DNA of 64,000 bases from positions 145,328,001 through 145,392,000 of the forward strand of contig CM059429.1 of assembly GCA_030390025.1 (NCBI GenBank), in the 5' to 3' direction. Shown here one piece after another: positions 2,426 through 26,550 of this stretch; position 1 is the first letter of the stretch; every line of letters starts with the position of its first letter. Made by a program: the position numbers and the translations under genes. The notes beneath the pieces are model-generated. The model was not told the origin of the DNA. It worked only from the letters and a program-made list of their open reading frames with translations, and searched no databases. Origin of the DNA: Squalus acanthias (Eukaryota).

Positions 2426-2986
2426 AAAGTGTCTGTTATGTTTGTTTTAGCTCCACCCACTTCTGTGCATAGAGCTAAACGTCGCTTAACCCTTTGTAGT
2501 CTTGTCTTGGATTTGGAAGTTTTAAGAATGTGTGAATATGTTGAGTAAGTTCATTTTAATTTAAGATTGTACACCCAGAATTGTAAGAAAAAAAATCTTT
2601 GAACTACAATTTAACTTAAGCTGTTGTGGCAGAGAAAAACAAAAAGGTTGTTTTTAACAAAAGATTAAGTTTTAGTCTAAGATTTAACCTTGGAGTTGTG
2701 GTTGCTATGGTGACATTTCCAAAGCAGTTTGATTTGATTTGTTTAAATGCGAAAAAACTAATTTTCCTCCGGTTATATTCAGTATTTTTAGTCATTTGGA
2801 AAGGCATCTGAAGAAAGATAAAGAGAAATATGATGTCATTTATTTGATTTTTGTAAGCATGTGCTATTTTGTTTTATTTTATCTGTTCTGCATTGTGTTT
2901 AGTTAATAAAATAATGGTCTGAATTAAATTGGAACTATTGAAGTAAACTAACCTATTAAGGCACCAGCAGCCAGGCTCATGGCACC

Positions 2987-3538
2987 ATGACTGGCTCTGT
3001 TGCAAAGAAGGGAGGGAAAAAGAGTGGCAGGGCTATAGTAATAGGGGATTCGATTGTAAGGGGAATAGATAGGGGTTTCTGTGGTCGCGACCGAGACTCC
3101 AGGATGGTATGTTGCCTCCCTGGTGCAAGGGTCAAGGATGTCTCGGCGCGGGTGCAGAACATTCTGGAGGGGGAGGGGGAACAGCCAGTTGTCGTGATAC
3201 ATGTTGGTACCAACGACGTAGCTAAAAAAAGGGAAGAGGTCCTACAAGTAGAATTTAGGGAGTTAGGAGCCAAGCTAAAAAGTAGGACCTCGAAGGTAGT
3301 AATCTCTGGATTACTACCAGTGCCACGTGCTAGTAAGAGTACAGAGAACAGGATAGTTAGGCTAAATACGTGGCTTGAGCAGTGGTGTAAGAGGGAGGGT
3401 TTTAAATTTTTGAGGCATTGGAACCAGTTTTGTGGTAGGTGTGACCTATACAAAAGGGACGGTCTACACCTGTGCAAAGATGGAACTGATGTTCTCGGGG
3501 TAATTTTTGATAAAGCAGTTCGGGAGCATTTAAACTAG
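2987..3538 (+). CDS. CR1 ORF1 C-terminal SGNH/GDSL esterase domain
   Basis: Motifs VIGDSIVR, HVGTND, DGLHL. Confidence 0.9.
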   Translation: MTGSVAKKGGKKSGRAIVIGDSIVRGIDRGFCGRDRDSRMVCCLPGARVKDVSARVQNILEGEGEQPVVVIHVGTNDVAKKREEVLQVEFRELGAKLKSRTSKVVISGLLPVPRASKSTENRIVRLNTWLEQWCKREGFKFLRHWNQFCGRCDLYKRDGLHLCKDGTDVLGVIFDKAVREHLN

Positions 3539-6479
3539 TATGGCAGGGGGCTAGAAACCTATGTAGTGAAATAAAGGAAAGTGAAAGGCAGACAGAAATA
3601 AATGGTAAAAGGGTGAGGAACAAAAAACAAAGGGCCAAACTAATTCATAAAAAATGTGAGCATAAAAAAAGCCTGAGGGTTTTATACCTTAATGCGAGAA
3701 GCATCAGGAACAAGGTAGATGAATTAGCTGTGGAAATAGAGGTTAATAATTATGATCTAATTGGGATTACGGAAACATGGTTGCAGGGTGAGCAGGGCTG
3801 GGAGCTTAACATACAGGGGTATTCAGTATTTAGGAAGGATCGACAAAAAAGAAAGGGAGGAGGGGTAGCATTACTGGTAAAAGAAGGGATAAATGCAATT
3901 GAAAGGAAGGATATTAACTCAGTTAATACAGAATCTATATGGGTGGAGCTAAGAAATAGCGAGGGGCGAAAAACATTAATAGGAGTGGTATATAGGCCTC
4001 CAAATAGTAAAATAGAGGTTGGGGAGGGCATCACGAGGGAAATTAGAGAAGCGTGCAATAAGAGCACAGCTGTCATCATAGGTGACTTTAACTTACATAT
4101 AGATTGGACTAGCCTAATCAGTAAAAATAATGAGGAGGAGGAATTCCTTGAGTGTTTAAGGGATGGTTATCTGGATCAATATGTCGAGGAACCAACTCGG
4201 GAACAGGCTATATTGGACTGGGTACTGTGCAATGAGAAGGGACTAATTAGTAATCTTGTTGTACGGGGACCCTTGGGTCAGAGCGATCATAACATGATCA
4301 ATTTCTCACTCGAAATGGAGAGTGAAGAAATTGACTCAGAGACTAAGGTCCTGAATTTAAACAAGGGGAATTATGATGCCATTAGACGGGAACTGAGTAG
4401 GTCTGATTGGACAACGTTCCTGGGAGGACTGGAGGTAGATAAACAATGGCAAGCATTTAAAGATAGAATGACAAAATTGCAAAAATTGTTTATACCAATC
4501 TGGCATAAAAGGGAATCTAAAAGGTGACTCAACCGTGGATAACAGGGGAAATTAGAGACAGCATAAAATCCAAAGATAGGGCGTATAAAATAGCCAAAAA
4601 AAGCGCCAGAGCGGAAGATTGGGAACAGTTTAAGATAGAGCAAAGGAGGACAAAGGGCTTAATCAAGAGGGGCAAAATAGCTTACGAAAGCAAGCTGGCG
4701 GAAAATATAAAAACTAACTCCAAAAGCTTTTATAAGTATATCAAGAGGAAAAGACTGGTGAAAACCAAAGTTGGCCCATTGCAGTCAGATACGGGGGAAT
4801 ATATAACGGGAAATAAGGAAATGGCAGACCAACTAAATGCATACTTTGGGTCAGTCTTTACGAAGGAAGACACAAAAAACCTCCCTGGGATATCGGGAAA
4901 AATAGGGACATTTGCAAAGGAGGAACTGATGCAAATCAATATCTCTAAGGATATGGTGTTAAGGAAGCTAAAGGGATTGAAGGCGGACAAATCCCCAGGG
5001 CCTGATAACATGCATCCTAGGGTGCTGAAGGAGGTGGCCCGAGAGATAGCGGATGCACTAAGTATGATTTTTCAGAATTCATTAGACTCGGGAACAGTGC
5101 CCATGGATTGGAGGGTAGCTAACGTTACCCCACTATTCAAAAAGGGGGGTAGGGAAAAAGCAGGTAATTACAGGCCTGTAAGCCTTACATCAGTTGTGGG
5201 CAAAATGCTGGAGTCCATCATTAAGGATGAAATAGCGGAGCACTTAGCAAATGGGGACAGGATAGGACAGAGTCAACATGGATTTACAAAGGGTAAATCG
5301 TGCTTGACTAATCTATTGGAATTTTTTGAGGGAGTAACTGGTAAAATAGATGGGGGAGAGCCAGTAGATGTGGTGTACCTGGACTTCCAAAAGGCCTTCG
5401 ATAAGGTCCCACATAAAAGATTCGCAGGGAAAATTGAAGCTCATGGGATAAAGGGGAAAGTATTGACGTGGATAGAGAACTGGCTGTCAGATAGAAAACA
5501 GAGAGTTGGAATAAACGGCTCATTTTCTGAATGGCAGGCAGTAACAAGTGGGGTACCACAGGGATCTGTCCTGGGTCCCCAGCTGTTCACAATTTACATT
5601 AATGACCTGGATCAAGGAGTCGGATGCAGCATTTCCAAATTTGCAGACGACACTAAACTAGGAGGGGGGGTGGGCTCAGAGGAGGAGACCAGGAAGCTCC
5701 AGAGCGATTTGGACAGACTGGGTGATTGGGCGGATAAATGGCAGATGCACTATAATGTGGACAAGTGCGAAGTTATCCACCTTGGGTGCAGGAACGGGAG
5801 GGCAAATTATTATTTAAATGGCAATAAATTGGGAGAGGGGGAAGTACAGAGAGACCTGGGTGTTCTTGTACACCAGTCACTGAAGGCGAGCATGCAGGTG
5901 CAACAGGCGGTCAAGAAGGCAAACGGTATGCTGGCCTTCATAGCAAAAGGGTTGGAATACAGGAACAGGGATACCTTGCTGCAGCTGTACAGGGCACTGG
6001 TGAGACCACACCTCGAGTACTGTGTACAGTTTTGGTCGCCTCATCTGAGGAAAGATGTTCTTGCCATGGAGGGGGTGCAGCGGCGATTCACCAGGCTGAT
6101 ACCAGGAATGGCGGGATTGACCTATGAGGAGAGACTATGTAGTTTAGGGATGTACACACTGGAGTTTAGAAGATTGAGAGGGGACCTCATAGAAGTGTAT
6201 AAAATTCTGACAGGTCTAGACAGACTAGATGCAGAAGGAATGTTTCCCTTGGCGGGTGAGAACAGAACTAGAGGACATAATTTAAGGATAAGGGCTAAAC
6301 CATTTAGGACAGAAATGAGGGGGAATTTCTTCACTCAGAGGGTGGTGAACCTGTGGAACTCATTGCCACAGAGGGCAGTGTACGCCAGCTCATTAAATAT
6401 ATTTAAGAGGGAATTAGATATATTTCTACAGGCAAAAGGGGTTAAGGGTTACGGAGAGAAGGCGGGGACGGGATACTGA
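3529..6479 (+). CDS. CR1 ORF2 (APE endonuclease + reverse transcriptase), one internal frameshift near 4520
   Basis: YLNARSI, ITETW, YRPP, GDFN, SDH (endonuclease); QHGF, DFQKAFD, GVPQGS, FADDTK (RT). Frame is open from 3514 with no ATG before the endonuclease domain. Confidence 0.9.
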
Positions 6480-8771
6480 ATTGGAGGATCAGCCATGATC
6501 TCATTAAATGGTGGAGCAGGCTCGAAGGGCCGGATGGCCTACTCCTGCTCCTATCTTCTATGTATCTATGTATCTATGTACAATATGACCACAGTGAAAT
6601 TCTGGTTATTTTGAATTATGTGAGAGTTTCTAGTTCTGTACAAGAGATTCTCACATTTAAAAAATATTGGCAGTTGTTGAATTGGAATTTTGGGACATTT
6701 GAGGTAATTCTGCTTATTAAACATTTTGGTTGTGCTAGAAAATCTTGGGTTTGGAAACCTCTTAAAAAAAAAAGTTTAAAAACAGTTGGAGTTTAATCTA
6801 AAATGCTGCCTTCCCTGATGAGAATGTTTTATTTAAAGCTAATAATGGCAGCGTCACTAATGATTTCTGCTGTTTTAGCGGATTTTTTAAAATTCCTAAG
6901 GAAGTTTTGAAGGTGCAAAGACTTGGAAAAAAAGTTTCAATTGGGAAAGTTTTTTTAAATTTGTGTGAAGTGACGCAATTGCGTGCGTCTGACACTATTT
7001 GCTCCGCCTTCTTATAAACCTGCAAAGGAGTTAACCCTTTCTGCTCACAGCTGGGTTTTTTTGGTTCACCACACAACTTTTGTATTGCTGCATGAAATTT
7101 ATATATTGGACATTATTAAATTTAAGTTTCTTAATTTTAAGTGAATATTTCCCTACGGTGACAGAAGGAAAATTATGATTTGACAAATTAACCCCTTGGG
7201 CTCTGAAGCAAAGCCACAATAGATTCTCTGCTTTCTTTTGTTATATGGAAGTTACCTTGTTGCGAGCACTTCTGTCTCTAATGTTAAAACACCATGTAAA
7301 ACCATCAAGCCTGTTTCTGAAATTGGAATAGATAAGGTAAATTGATAAAAATAAAATTGATATGAGTTGCTGTTTCAAGAACTCGAGAAGGGAAAATCTA
7401 ACTGAAGTTTAAGGGGAAAGTCAAATTTTCATTAAAATAAACTGGTTGAGAGCAGTCTAGGTGGTCCTGCCAATTGCTGGGTATCAAGGAAGAAAGATTT
7501 TGGGGAAATAGAAATTGAAGATTGGCAAAGCCTGTCAGTCCAACAATACTGCTGTTTGGATTTGGGATAAGTTTGAAATGATAAAATGGATTCAAGCACA
7601 ATATATCGGGTTATTTTGGGAAATAAAAGATCCTCTAAAATAATGATAAACCAAAAAAAAGTGTTCATAACTTGGACTAAGTGGGAACATTAGATTTTTG
7701 TTTTAAAGATATTATGAAAATATTGTATTGGACAGTAAAGTTCCTCCAGGGCTCATGAATGAGATATGAATAGTAATTAATGGGAAGCCCCACTTAAGAT
7801 GCAAGATAGAAACAGGAAATGTTTCATTACACCACCAAATGGAAATTTTTTTAAATCATTTTTTAGGTGAATTGGCATAAATCACCTGGGTGCAATCTGG
7901 TATTAATGTACATTCTAGTGAAAGTCAGGAAAGTGTAGTTAAAAATAGTAAATTGATAGGTTTCTCTTGGAGACATTTGTGTCCTTGCCTATGAACTTTT
8001 TAAGAAAACTAAATGTGATAGTCTGGCCACTACCCAAGACATCAGGACCATGCAGAGGACGATGAGTAAAGATCTCCAGATGACTACGATCTTTTGATAA
8101 GATCACCTGAAAGCCCGAGAATGGCTTGTATCAGATGTCACGTGTGGCAAGTTATTGGGATTGTGCAAATGTGATTTGTTACATATGAAGCGATTAGCTT
8201 GCGGGAATGCGTGGTGAATTTGCACTGAAGAATGGGTCTCAGACATGTTCAGTTACTCGACAACAGCAAGACATGAAATGGTTAATGTGGCTCAGGAGAG
8301 TGAGACAACTTTTAAAGCATTTACACATATTCCATCAAGAAACTCTCATTAATGAAACAATCAAAATAGAGTTAAACACACTGGTACCTGTTAGAGGGAT
8401 TGAAATTGAAGTTGAAGTGGAGAGTTACATGGAATTTGGATTGGGACAATTGAGGGCTAGGGAGAAATAAATTTAGTAAGAATTATCCACAAGATGGATA
8501 AGAGTAAAAGCGAGATCTGGAGAATCTTTTAAGTCTTTTATTGATTAGATGTTAAACTGCAGCTTTTTAACAATGTCTGTTTTCTTTGTCTGCATCAGTG
8601 TCGCTTGAAATGTATGTACTTAGTCGACGTGCTAATGATTGTAAGACTGAATTATAACTTGTAACTGTAATAATTGTGTTTTGTAGGTAACAGAGCGTGG
8701 GAAAAAACAGTACGAATCCAGTATGAGGTGGTTTTGATGGTGCCTCCTGTGTAACTACTACCGCAACTACC

Positions 8772-11020: not shown

Positions 11021-14000
11021 TTACGAGGTCTGGACGAGACGCTGCGGCGGTCTGATGGGCCGGCCGGAGCGGCTCTTGTAGGACGCCGGTGGACGTGGAA
11101 CGGCCGGGCGTGGAGCAGCCGGGTGAACTGGCTTGAGGGCAGGTCGGCTGCGTGGCGGTGGACGAGCTACAGGGACCTGCTCACCAGGCTCCGAGTGTGC
11201 TGGCTTGAGTCGGTCAACCGACACTTTTTCGGTCCTGTCGCCCACTTGCAGGGTGAAAAATTTGTCCCCAGCCTGTAGCACCTTGTAGGGCCTGTCGTAC
11301 GGGGGTTGAAGGGGTCCACGGTGGGCGTCGTGCCGGACGAAAATGAACCGTGCCTGGTGCAGGCTTAGTGGGACGTGTGAGGTGGATTCGCCGTGTCAGG
11401 CAATGGGCACCGGGGCGAACTGTAGCGCCGGTGAGGCGAAGTCGTGGCGTTGCTGGTCGGCTGATCAGGGTGTCGTGGCGGTGGGCAGGAACTCGCCGGG
11501 TACACGCAGCGGCTGACCGTACACGAGCTCTGCTGCCGATGCGCGGAGGTCTTCTTTAACCGCGGTGCGCAGGCCGAGGAGGACCCACGGAAGTTGGTCG
11601 GTCCAGGCGCCGTCCTGGAGGCTGGCTCGAAGAGATGCCTTCAAGGATTTGTGGAACCGCTCACACAGTCCGTTGGCTTGGGGGTGGTACGCTGTGGTGC
11701 GGTGAATGGTCACCCCGAGATTGCGTGCGACGGCAGTCCAGAGTTCAGAGGTAAATTGCGGACCTCTGTCCGACGTCATGTCGGAGGGGACACCGAACCG
11801 TGCGACCCAGGTGCTGACGAAGGCTCTGGCGATGTCGGCGGTGGTGGTAGAGGTCAGTGGAATTGCCTCGGGCCAGCGCGTGGTGCGGTCAATGATCGTC
11901 AGCAAGTGCGTGTGGCCTTGCGACAGCGGCAGGGGCCCGACGATGTCCACGTGGATGTGGTCGAATCTACGCGAAGGGACGGTAAACTCCTCGAGGGGTG
12001 CTTTCGTGTGTTGCTGCACCTTGGCCTGTTGGCAGGCTAGGCAGGAGTTGGCCCAAGTACACACATCCTTGCGAAGGCCGCGCCAGACAAAGCGGTTGGC
12101 TACCAATTTGATGGATGCGCGGGCGCCGGGTTGGGAGAGGTTGTGGAGAATGTCGAATACCCGGCGGCGCCAGGACGACGGGCCGAGGTTGACATAGGGA
12201 TATGTCACACTTGACCGTGACTGCGGTCGGGCCACAGGCGACATCGGCCAGGCGTAGCCCTGGAAGGTTGGTAGGTGCGGAGAGCAGATCAGGGTCGGTG
12301 ATCTGGTCTGCTGCGAGTTGAGCGTAGTCGACTGCCAGGTGTGCGGCGTGGATGGCGGGGCGGGAGAGGCAGTCGGCTACCACATTGTCTCAGCCGGAGA
12401 CGTGTTGGATGTCCGTGGTGAACTTGGACACTGCCGCGAGCTGGCGCTGCTGCCTGGCGGACCAGGGGTCGGTTGTCTTTGCCATCGCGAATGTCAGGGG
12501 TTTGTGGTCGACAAACGCAGTGAAGGGGTGGCCCTCCAGCAAAAACCGAAATTGGCGGACCGCCAGGAACAGCACGAGGAGCTCGCGGTCGAAGGTGCTG
12601 TACTTGACCTCCGTGGGGCGTAGTTGGCAGCTGAAGAAGGCAAGTGGTTGCCAGGCGCCGTCGACCCACTGCTCATACACGGCGCCGACCGCATGGTCGG
12701 AGGCGTCCGTGGTGAGCGCTACCCTGGCATTGGGCCATGGGTGCGCGAGTAGGGTGGCGTTGGTGAGCGCGGTCTTGGTGGAGTCGAAGGCAGCTGACGC
12801 GTCTGCCGTCCATTTGACCGCCATCTTGCCGCTCCTGCCCTGGAGGGCTTCATACAGGGGCCTCATGAGGGACGCCGCTTTGGGGATGTAGAAATTCACC
12901 ATCCCGAGGAACTCCTGGAGGTCTTTGATGGTGGTGGGGCGGGGAAATTGTTGGACGGCCTGCACCTTGGTGGGCAGGGGAATGGCCCCAGCATGGGTGA
13001 TGTGGTGGCCGAGGAAGTCGATCTTGTCCAGGCCGAACTGGCATTTGGCTGGGCTGAGGATGAGCCCGTGGTCGCTGAGGCGCTCGAACAGGATGCGAAG
13101 GTGTTTGAGGTGTTCCTGCTTGGAGGAACTGGCTACCAGGATGTCGTCCAGGTAGACGAACAGGAACTTCAGGTCCCGAAGGACCGAGTCCATGAGCCAT
13201 TGGAATGCCTGGGCCGCATTTTTGAGGACGAAGGGCATCCGCAGGAACTCGAAAAGGCCGAAGGGGGTGATTACGGCCATCTTGGGGACATCCGCGGGCT
13301 GGACGGGGACTTGGTGGTAGCCACGCACCAGGTCGACCTTGGAAAAGACTGAGCGGCCGGCCAGACTAGCCGAGAAGTTCTGGATGTACGGCACGGGGTA
13401 CCGATCAGGGGTGGTGGCGTCGTTGAGGCGGCGGTAATTCCTGCAGGGGCGCCAACCCCCGCCTGGTTTGGGGGCGATGTGGAGTGGGGAGGCCCAGGGA
13501 CTGTTGGAGCAGCGGATGATGCCGAGCTGTTCCATGGTGGCAAACTCGGTCCGCGCGAACTCCAGTTTGGCCGTGTCCAGCCTGCGGGCATGGGCGTACA
13601 CTGGGGGGCCTGTGGTGGGGATGAAGTGTTCCACCCCGTGTTTGGCGGCCTCCGCGGAGAAGGTTGGATTGGTAAGGGCCAGGAATTCGGCCAGGAGTGC
13701 CAAGTAGTCATCCGTGGCCCGGGCGTGGCACTGTGACGCCATGTCGGCGGGTTGACGGGGGGCCATGGCGTCCAGGATGGGGGACATGGTGTTCATGTCC
13801 ACGAGGTGGTGTCGAGGGATGTCTACCAGTAGGCCGTGGGCGCACAGGAAATCTGCGCCGATGAGAGGGGAGAGCACCTTGGCAGTGATGAACTCCCATC
13901 GGTAGCGGCGACCAGCGAGGTCGAGGGTGACTGTGTGGGTGCCGTACGTCCGGATTCCGAGCAGTTAACAGCAGCCAGCGCCGGTCCTCGTTTGCCCTTT

Positions 14001-14815
14001 TGGATGTTGAGGGCGGAGGCCGGGATGATGCTGTGCTGAGCTCCAGTGTCGCACAGGAACCGGCGGACGGTTTTGTCATCCGTGACGTACAGGAGGGAGC
14101 CCGCGTGGCCCACGGCCATCGCGGGGGCTGGTACGGGGACGGACTTGAAAGAGCAGGGAGGTGTGCACCGTTGTGCCCTGGTGCCGAACCGTGCATGGTA
14201 GTAACAGTGGCCCTGGTTAGTGGGGCGCGAAGGCCCCGTGAGCCCGGTGGCTGGGCCTTGTGGCCGCGTGGTGGCTGATGAGGGGCGCGCCCAGGCAGTG
14301 GCTGCCAGGTCCGGAGTGACGTCACAGCTGGAGTGAGCGGACAGCAGCTTGTCGGCCTCATCGGCCAGGGCTTCCAGGTCCGTGAGGCCGGACGCCACGA
14401 TCGCTGGGCGGATGCTGAGAGGTAGCTGGCGGATGAACAGCGTGCGGAAGAGGGATCCGGGTGGGCTCTCGTCGGTGAGGGAGAGCATGTGGGAGAGGAG
14501 GTCTGACGGTGAGGCATCACCGAGGCCTGGAAGGTCGAGGAGGTGGCAGTTTCGCTGCTATGTCGAGGCCGTAAATTTTTTAAGGAGCGCGGCCTTAAGA
14601 TGTGCATACTTGCCCTCCTCTGGTGGGTTCTGCAGCGCTGTCCAGACCTTCGTAACTGTGGAGCTACCAAGTGATGTGACGAGGTAGTCGTACTTCGTCC
14701 CATCTGTGGTGATGTGTCGCAGCCGGAATCGGGACTCGGCTTGGAGGAACCAGGCTTCGGGCTGGTTTTCCCAAAACTCCGGCAGTTTCACGGAAACTGC
14801 ATTCATATCCGCCAT
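11021..14815 (-). pseudogene. Gypsy gag-pol (gag, protease, RT, RNase H, integrase), several frameshifts
   Basis: ORF pieces 14558-14815, 13823-14488, 12390-13877, 11967-12383, 11465-12244 and 11021-11281 give the domains in Ty3/Gypsy order. Confidence 0.92.
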
Positions 14816-24600: not shown

Positions 24601-26550
24601 TTATGGTCACTGTCACCAAAATGCTCTCCGACTGACACTTCTACCATTAGCCCAGCTACATTCCCTAGAATTAGGTCCAGTACCGCCCCCTCTCTTGTAG
24701 GACTTTCTACATGCTGGCTTAAAAAGCTCTCCTGGATGCACTTTAAGAATTCCGCACCCTCTAAGCCTTTCACACTCTGACTATCCCATTTAATATTGGG
24801 GAAGTTGAAATCCCTTACTATTATTACCCTATTATTTCTACACTTCTCTGAGATTTGCCTACATATCTGTTCCTCTATCTCCCCCTGACTGTTTGGGGGC
24901 CTATAATACACTCCCAGCAAAGTGCTTGGCCCCTTTTTGTTTTTAAGTTCTACCCATATGGCCTCATTAGAGGAACCTGCTAAGATATCATCCCTCCTTA
25001 CTGCAGTAATTGACTCCTTGATTAATATTGCGACACCCCCTCCTGTTTTACACCCCCCTCTGTCTCGCCTGAAGATTCTATACCCTGGAATATTGAGCTG
25101 CCAGTCCTGCCCCTCCCTCAACCATGTCTCTGTGATAGCAACAATATCATGTGTTCATCAACACCTTCAATTCATCTGCCTTACTCACAAGACTCCTTGC
25201 ATTAAAATAAATGCCATCCAGCCTTGCCATACTCCCTTGTGCCGTTACATATTTTCTCTGCCTTCCAGGCTGACTTGTTTTTTCCTCTATATTTGGCTGT
25301 GCATCAACCCCTACTATAGCTCCACTCCATATCCCATTCCCCTGCCAAGTTAGTTTAAACCCCCCCCAACAGTACTAGCAAACGTCTCTGCAGTGATGTT
25401 GGTCCCGTTCCGGTTCAGGTGCAACCCGTCCGACTTGTACAGGTCCCACCTTCCCCAGAAGCAGACCCAGTGATCCAGGAAACTAAAGCCCTCCCTCCTG
25501 CACCAACTCTTTAGCCACGCATTCATCTGTTCTATCCTCCTATTCCTATACTCACTAGCACGTGTCACTGGGAGTAATCCAGAGATTACAACCTTTGAGG
25601 TCCTGTTTTTTAATCTGCTACCTAGCTCCCTAAATTCTTGTTGCAGGACCTCATCCCTCTTTCTACCTATGTCATTGGTACCAATGTGAACCACGACCTC
25701 TGACTGTTCGCCCTCCCCCTTCAGAATGCCCTGCAGCCGTTCAGTGACATCCTTGACCCTGGCACCAGGGAGGCAACATACCATCCTGGAGTCACGTCGG
25801 CGGCCACAGAAACGTCTATCTGTTCCCCTTACGATAGAATCCCCTATCACTATTGCTTCTCCCACTCTTTTTCCTCCCCTCCTGTGCAGCTGAGCCACTC
25901 GTAGTGCCACGGACTTGGCTCTTGCTGCATTCCCTGAGAAACCATCTCCCCCAGCAGTATCCAAAACGGAAAATCTGTTGGAGAGGGAGATGGACCCAGT
26001 GGACTCCTGCACTACCTTCCTAGTTCTTTTACTCTGTCTGGCAGTCACCCATTCCCTGTCTGCCTGTGCACTCTTTACCTGCGGTGTGGCCACCTCATTA
26101 AACGTGCTATTCACGAAGATCTCTGCTTCGCGGATGCTTCACAGTGACTCCAGCCGCAGCTCCAGCTCCGAAACGTGGATTTCGAGTTGCTGCAGCTGGA
26201 GACACTTCCTGCACATGTGTTCGCCCTGGACACCGAAAGTGTCCCTGACTTCCCACATAGCACAGGAGGAGCACTCCATGCTGCCGAGCTGCCCTGCCAT
26301 GTCCTACCCTTAACTTACTCCCTTTACTTCCTTTAAATTAAAGAATATTAAATACACTAGGGACCTTACATCACTAACACTACTTACTCTAAACTAGAGA
26401 CCTTACTTTTACTTCAACGACTGGACTGTAGAAATACTCACCAGGACCTACTTACCAATCAGCTCCTTCCCTGGTTGTGACGTCACTTTAGCGGTTTCGC
26501 AGTTGTTGTTGTTTGACTGCTCCCGCTCTCGGACTCTTTCCCAACTCGCA
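21610..26550 (-). mobile_element. Full-length decayed CR1 LINE
   Basis: 5' UTR; ORF1 from ATG at 26300 (MAGQLGSMECSSCAMWE...CRKC zinc finger, leucine zipper, esterase) to 25350; endonuclease ~25200-24500; RT to 21687. Multiple stops/frameshifts. Confidence 0.92.
23227..23973. mobile_element. Harbinger-type MITE inserted in CR1 ORF2
   Basis: Imperfect TIR GGCCCTGAAATTCG / CGAATTTTTGGCCC, TSD ACT; internally related to 20719-21372. Confidence 0.8.

Follow-up and report, generated by a model that had tools for sequence, protein, structure and literature searches.

A conserved candidate recoding signal at the ORF1/ORF2 junction of vertebrate CR1 retrotransposons

How the second open reading frame (ORF2) of long interspersed nuclear elements (LINEs) is translated has been settled only in part. 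Most of the work concerns L1 and SART1, both of which reinitiate, SART1 ORF2 being reached by termination-reinitiation. For the LINEs of Paramecium, +1 shifting or reinitiation has been suggested (PMC5405496). In programmed -1 ribosomal frameshifting, the slippery site follows the pattern X_XXY_YYZ (PMC7618472), and U_UUA_AAC belongs to the heptamers at which mammalian ribosomes shift most readily (PMC5009743). In chicken no repeat is more abundant than CR1 (PMC11835228), and the family is also widespread in reptiles and sharks; the first 300,000 characters of PMC5009743 make no mention of it. No frameshift proposal for CR1 was found in open-access searches, which did not reach the 1997 chicken and turtle CR1 papers. 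Those papers and the Repbase annotations may mention the overlap or a frameshift. Here we analyse the junction between ORF1 and ORF2 of a CR1-type LINE from Squalus acanthias, found in a stretch of 64,000 nucleotides (nt) that we call the window (assembly GCA_030390025.1, contig CM059429.1, positions 145,328,001-145,392,000 of the forward strand). Judged by sequence comparison, this junction is a deeply conserved recoding-type signal, and we consider it probable that programmed -1 ribosomal frameshifting at this site joins the ORF1 and ORF2 proteins (ORF1p and ORF2p) into a fusion.

The CR1 element occupies positions 2958 to ~6580 of the plus strand. Its ORF1, in the frame from 2960, terminates in GAG CAT TTA AAC TAG, with TTTAAAC (3529-3535) in X_XXY_YYZ phase and the stop codon (3536-3538) immediately after it. 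The -1 frame is shut by TGA TAA at 3508-3513, is open from 3514 and reads SSSGA FKLVWQG...; the only in-frame ATGs in the 5' part of ORF2 are at 4294, 4315 and 4468, the first of which follows most of the endonuclease (EN). An earlier reading of this stretch (hereafter the original prediction) had claimed an in-phase T_TTA_AAC directly 5' of the ORF1 stop, an ORF2 in the -1 frame opening after TGA TAA and no in-frame ATG until late in the endonuclease domain, and each of these statements is exact. The deepest contigs of sequencing runs X5 and X2 show zero differences from the window across the junction, and the Met-less junction is therefore the state of the family; over 3521-4399 the X2 contig differs from the window at 5 positions, and among the variants listed the fitting changes create no ATG before 4294. 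In a second CR1 copy, on the minus strand, ORF1 is 77% identical to the first in nucleotides and 67% in amino acids, and the G-tract (25342-25339, minus strand) follows the heptamer at the same spacing as in the first copy.

Two further features of this region were observed on the plus strand. An out-of-frame ATG 1 nt past the ORF1 stop (3540-3554), in a strong context with A at -3 and G at +4, reads Met-Ala-Gly-Gly-stop and would divert reinitiating ribosomes from ORF2 in the window family. Another in-phase heptamer, G_GGT_TTT, lies in ORF1 at 3397-3403 and corresponds to the Phe codon at position -44; the -1 frame entered there is shut before the junction.

The plus strand of the window holds 359 heptamers of the X_XXY_YYZ pattern, nine of them TTTAAAC; a heptamer in a single copy means little by chance, and it is the invariance across lineages that exceeds chance. 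Metagenomic contigs scanned with an ORF1 alignment (its first row ending 45 nt before the heptamer) and with esterase-core patterns gave 49 loci, and GTDB contigs gave one, of 506 bp and without the junction; viral contigs gave no matches with the ORF1 alignment, ORF2 or the junction pattern, and plasmids gave no match. The junction is spanned by 17 of these 50 loci, which together with the two window copies make up the 19 copies analysed; left out were L001, which ends within the heptamer, L014, whose junction is non-homologous, and 31 loci that end earlier or lack a usable match. The first T of the heptamer is present in all 19 copies and exact TTTAAAC in 16. On a tree (19 copies, length 5.9) built on the ORF1 codons upstream of the heptamer, each of the last three ORF1 codons shows 0 synonymous changes (GCT in 14/14 Ala, TTA in 18/18 Leu and AAC in 17/17 Asn), compared to a mean of 3.85 for 20 well-conserved, degenerate control codons, only one of which shows none. 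The nucleotides are, by this measure, conserved beyond the needs of the protein. Elsewhere in the ORF1 copies TTA is the rarest Leu codon (10 of 118), and AAC is used for 21 of 46 Asn. A rough Poisson p for the invariance of the three codons is ~1e-6, and for any conserved 7-mer the chance of matching X_XXY_YYZ in the right phase is ~5e-4. After the heptamer comes TAG in 11 copies, TAA in three, TGA in two and a non-stop codon in three; because the stop varies in this way, selection acts on a stop and not on AG. Conservation of the heptamer across CR1 copies, which the original prediction had proposed as a check, thus extends to synonymous positions in deeply diverged lineages.

The proteins carry the same mark. 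A Leu-Asn C-terminus was found in 122 of 137 ORF1 relatives, from sharks, rays, frogs, turtles, lizards, a snake and birds. The ORF1 protein queries contained Leu-Asn, which is a small bias, and 7/8 ORF1-type representatives obtained from a query without Leu-Asn-stop also terminate in Leu-Asn. By eye, the 15 exceptions look like fusions, read-throughs, truncations or distant relatives, and one ends in Ile-Asn. Asp and His of the DGxH motif are both at their usual offsets in only 89 of the 122 proteins ending in Leu-Asn, and the active ZfL2-1 esterase terminates at Ile302 without it; the esterase fold therefore does not need Leu-Asn, and the terminal dipeptide most likely reflects the conserved heptamer.

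In two gene models of Hypanus sabinus (P0003 and P0004) the esterase continues in frame through ...GFKL... into the endonuclease, that is, ORF1 and ORF2 are fused at the junction. They may represent indels of single copies, artefacts of the gene models or a subfamily with a hard-wired fusion, and the search for longer proteins was enriched for such cases. A fused query against 1.84 billion representatives gave no single match across esterase and EN among the best 150, none of 8 long matches scanned had an esterase Pfam match, and P0139, which starts with part of ORF1, is joined via the gene model. Within the scope of the fused-query search and the Pfam scans, a widespread, naturally fused ORF1-ORF2 family is not supported. 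Vertebrate CR1 ORF1 sequence was also seen in short contigs labelled Providencia, Klebsiella and Pseudomonas (L050, P0067 and P0119), which are probably host contamination.

Across copies, the -1 frame is shut 1-5 codons upstream of the heptamer in 11 of the 19, and an upstream ATG occurs in one; the conserved upstream ATG that the original prediction had named as another possible source of ORF2 is not there. Downstream, 8 of the 12 sufficiently long copies have no stop in this frame between the heptamer and the EN motif, through linkers of 37-88 codons; of the others, L035 and L046 reach EN-like sequence in the -1 frame by eye, and L010 and L030 are shifted. No Met precedes the EN motif in the window copy or in L028, leaving the downstream frame of the window family and of L028 without a start of its own.

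Past the heptamer, a G-run begins at 10 nt, the spacer being without insertion or deletion, and GGG occupies +12 to +14 in all 17 copies reaching that position. A conserved motif at a fixed spacing of 10-14 nt is what protein-stimulated frameshifting would use. In the ORF2 of four elements GGG accounts for 100 of 286 Gly codons, and the invariant GGG could also be explained by a glycine requirement combined with codon bias. A G-quadruplex is not supported as a general stimulator: just 3 of 16 junctions, neither window copy among them, have it as their predicted minimum-energy fold. In one bird-like lineage only, a short hairpin (GGAC...GTCC) can form right after the stop with the G-run in its loop (L017 4505-4524, L035 4490-4510).

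In programmed -1 frameshifting at this junction, tRNA-Leu and tRNA-Asn would re-pair on UUU AAA, producing ...HLN-LVWQG... in the window family. A minority of ribosomes would slip to make a fusion of ORF1p, endonuclease and reverse transcriptase (RT), and most would terminate to release ORF1p. The source of the pause would be the adjoining stop codon plus the G-tract in single-stranded form, rather than a hairpin or pseudoknot. A Pfam scan of ORF2 of the window copy found no protease domain, so that, barring cleavage by a host enzyme, the variable linker would keep the fusion together. The esterase-endonuclease-RT fusion in gag-pol fashion of the original prediction is supported comparatively, with the heptamer conserved, but neither the coronavirus-like downstream structure nor the gag-pol protease is present.

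Several observations weigh against frameshifting. Canonical -1 signals require a structure 5-9 nt downstream (PMC7618472); local structure is absent in 16 junctions (z from -1.68 to +1.37), and 13 aligned junctions give 0 consensus pairs. The G-rich 3' segment of the window copy, which had been expected to be structured, gave no fold (z = 0.34). No stem-loop or pseudoknot was found 5-9 nt downstream with folding tools that do not model pseudoknots, and the alignment shows no conserved C-rich partner nearby. The CR1 site would thus work like viral sites but lack the structure of a canonical signal. The exact heptamer is missing in 3 of the 19 copies (L002, L005 and L010) and the stop in 3, which we read as decay. 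One control codon, Phe -44, is also invariant, being TTT in 16 of 16 copies. The DNA sample is narrow, consisting of the two window copies and 17 loci that are bird-like by similarity, nine of them from one assembly, and turtles, frogs and lizards are represented by protein only. L1 ORF2 is reported to be translated via AUG-independent reinitiation, with no fusion (PMC11485995, PMC2241872). Finally, 7 of the 19 copies carry an in-frame ATG 2 nt past the stop, at +6 to +8 from the heptamer, two more have TTG there and one GTG, and L035 has the stop-start TAATG; such starts are not predicted by frameshifting.

These starts speak for the main rival, termination-reinitiation, in which ribosomes would restart 2 nt past the ORF1 stop at AUG or a near-cognate codon and make free ORF2p, the heptamer and the G-tract serving to hold the 40S subunit. 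The predicted protein P0143 begins MQGDG at the matching position (by eye), L1 provides a precedent, and the lack of any frameshift-stimulating structure fits as well. However, both window copies lack a stop-adjacent in-frame AUG, the window family and the second copy having TGG at that position, and other copies have GAC, GAA, TCG or TCC. Reinitiation also leaves unexplained why X_XXY_YYZ is exact and in phase with a constraint starting at its first T, and upstream no conserved tether of the TGGGA type was seen, the DG codons being variable. We regard reinitiation as the sole explanation as unlikely; it may coexist with frameshifting in lineages with ATG 2 nt after the stop.

Frameshifting might instead be driven by elements at a distance, either by pairing of the G-tract with an arm of the 3' untranslated region (UTR) stem-loop, as in barley yellow dwarf virus (BYDV; PMC7618472), or by pairing with the pyrimidine-rich codons of CCLPG ~420 nt upstream. 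In the window copy the 3' UTR arm is a good duplex partner, seventh among 879 windows at -17.9 kcal/mol, and in each of the two window copies the top rank falls to the CCLPG codons. The 3' UTR ranks only 45/1059, 234/907 and 118/859 in the other three paired elements, however, and when competing structure is allowed for, 20, 39, 94 and 87% of ORF2 windows bind as well as the 3' UTR. Cognate pairs of G-tract and 3' UTR do no better than non-cognate ones, and the Leu, Pro and Gly codons of CCLPG vary synonymously. Conserved pairing of the BYDV type was not found in the 4 paired elements available, 2 of which are visibly degraded. Given these ranks, the competition and the synonymous variation, pairing with either partner is not supported, and we hold a long-range stimulator to be very unlikely.

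Alternatively, ORF2 could be supplied by splicing, with AAACTAG as a 3' splice site, or by an internal promoter, with TTTAAA as a TATA-like box giving a subgenomic RNA. With TAG after the heptamer, 11 of the 19 copies conform to a YAG acceptor, and in RNA run X24 (depth 62) 14 read starts cluster at 3523 on the plus strand, 6 nt before the heptamer; they are not listed for run X23. Against splicing, TAA or TGA replaces TAG in 5 of the 19 copies, the upstream sequence is purine-rich and has no pyrimidine tract, and two RNA runs with ~90-120 reads over the junction list no GT..AG joint; these reads fall on both strands and may stem from embedded copies. The stop-codon variation and the absence of listed joints in these two runs make a splice acceptor, which the original prediction had named as a competing source of ORF2, unlikely, and we rejected it. 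A subgenomic RNA of the window family would offer no AUG before most of the endonuclease. Both routes appear highly improbable.

Dual coding, in which ORF1p needs its terminal Leu-Asn and an ORF2p started upstream needs Phe-Lys-Leu, would by the genetic code fix 6 of the 7 bases through the Leu-Asn and Phe-Lys overlap without slippage and agrees with the frequent Leu-Asn ends, but the shut upstream frame and the single upstream ATG largely refute it, the seventh base is C in 17/17 Asn codons although free to be C or T, and a related active esterase (ZfL2-1) does without Leu-Asn, so that this account is almost certainly wrong.

The coordinates of the CR1 features are collected in the table. We assign the element to the vertebrate esterase-type CR1s from its domain layout (an SGNH esterase domain in ORF1, an apurinic/apyrimidinic (APE) endonuclease and RT in ORF2), from its 3' UTR ending in short tandem repeats, and from an identity of 44-49% with bird-like loci whose tails are of the CR1 octamer kind; esterase-type ORF1s characterize CR1 subgroup 7 of PMC4120745, and the CR1 tail is described in PMC2612034. 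The nearest named ORF1 relatives are those of sharks and rays, with identity up to 77% for a named species. Family contigs, contig 1 of run X2 among them, extend upstream of 2958, from which it follows that the window copy is 5'-truncated inside ORF1. Its ORF2 is broken at ~4521-4527 by a stop and a frame change; EN and RT share one frame in the related loci L004, L006 and L009, and the break is apparently specific to the window copy. This copy has no capacity for full-length ORF2, and the proposed frameshift therefore concerns the CR1 family, not the window copy.

Table. CR1 features at the two junctions of the window
Feature	Position	Strand	Evidence
ORF1 remnant, 5'-truncated, SGNH/GDSL esterase, ending ...HLN-stop	2960..3538	+	Pfam PF13472 (1.1e-11)
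Candidate slippery heptamer T_TTA_AAC in ORF1 phase	3529..3535	+	Sequence; invariance across copies
ORF1 stop TAG adjoining the heptamer (TAA or TGA in other lineages)	3536..3538	+	
G-tract, core GGG 3547-3549 invariant, candidate 3' stimulator	3546..3550	+	Copy alignment; Gly codon background
Basic linker, -1 frame, without stop or Met, from slip site to first endonuclease motif YLNARS (3685)	3536..3684	+	
ORF2 5' part, -1 frame, APE endonuclease	3514..4527	+	Pfam PF03372/PF14529 over 3514-4524
ORF2 3' part, reverse transcriptase	4521..6479	+	Pfam PF00078 (5e-31) over 4521-6476
3' UTR stem-loop, arms GGAGCAGG/CCTGCTCC, then TATCTATG-type tail repeats to ~6580	6513..6551	+	
Second copy, ORF1 esterase, diverged, ending ...GLN-stop	25350..26138	-	
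Second copy, junction T_TTA_AAC TAA (context GGT TTA AAC TAA)	25350..25359	-	

Elsewhere in the window, further CR1 fragments of distinct subfamilies lie at 9.7-10.7, 16.4-18.8, 21.6-26.3, 27.8-28.9, 44.0-45.4 and 61.1-61.4 kb, and most of them share a GGGCC-N4-TGGCC hairpin before the tail. Open reading frames of a Gypsy-type long terminal repeat (LTR) retroelement (RT, RNase H and integrase, in separate frames) occupy ~11465-14787 on the minus strand. On the plus strand, ~1-1410 may be an LTR element: inspection by eye shows a stretch resembling an LTR and then, near 1001, a motif like a primer-binding site; a short open reading frame from 1153 has no Pfam match.

If CR1 does shift frame, its ORF2p would be a fusion with ORF1p, which would change the annotation and the assays of active CR1s; a gene model in which ORF2 begins at an internal Met cuts the endonuclease, and CR1 would be exposed to host frameshift inhibitors. 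Canonical sites depend on an RNA structure that is apparently missing here, so the CR1 signal may reveal another way of stimulating slippage. We put forward, as a doubtful but possible extension, that a structure-free -1 frameshift has been kept since the jawed-vertebrate ancestor in the LINE that dominates in birds, reptiles and sharks. The ratio of ORF1p to the ORF1p-ORF2p fusion would be set by the stop and by a single-stranded G-tract lying 10 nt downstream, which would either be recognized by a protein acting in trans, be it ORF1p itself or a host protein that binds G-runs, or fold into a G-quadruplex. RT would then be built into the particle while still fused and uncleaved, in contrast to L1 ORF2p, and how much of it is made could be under regulation.

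Compared to known systems, CR1 shares with the coronavirus ORF1a/1b site (U_UUA_AAC in infectious bronchitis virus; PMC5009743, PMC7618472) the heptamer, its phase and a downstream polymerase frame in -1, but CR1 is a non-LTR retrotransposon, has no pseudoknot or hairpin 5-9 nt downstream, and its zero-frame stop adjoins the heptamer. As in Rous sarcoma virus gag-pol (PMC5009743), the proposal is of a minor fusion between a structural product, here of ORF1, and an RT polyprotein, with ribosomes that do not shift terminating soon after; unlike gag-pol, CR1 has no stimulatory pseudoknot and no protease domain in ORF2, hence no self-processing, and its ORF1p is a zinc-finger/esterase protein, unlike gag. 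The Dictyostelium LINEs TRE5-A and TRE3-A, also of the APE type, are said to need a -1 frameshift for ORF2 (PMC5911963, in a statement that gives neither slip site nor assay); they differ from CR1 in lineage and ORF1. The PRRSV nsp2 site (PMC7618472) resembles that of CR1 in that a brief conserved motif, located 10 nt downstream of where the shift occurs, takes the place of RNA structure, although the viral motif is C-rich and bound by nsp1beta/PCBP while that of CR1 is G-rich, and the likeness in spacing is an analogy. L1 (PMC11485995, PMC2241872) resembles CR1 in that its LINE RNA is bicistronic and yields little ORF2 product, and some CR1 lineages have an AUG beside the stop; in rat L1, however, a 60-bp spacer with in-frame stops separates the two frames and no fusion is made, whereas the CR1 frames overlap in -1 at an invariant heptamer.

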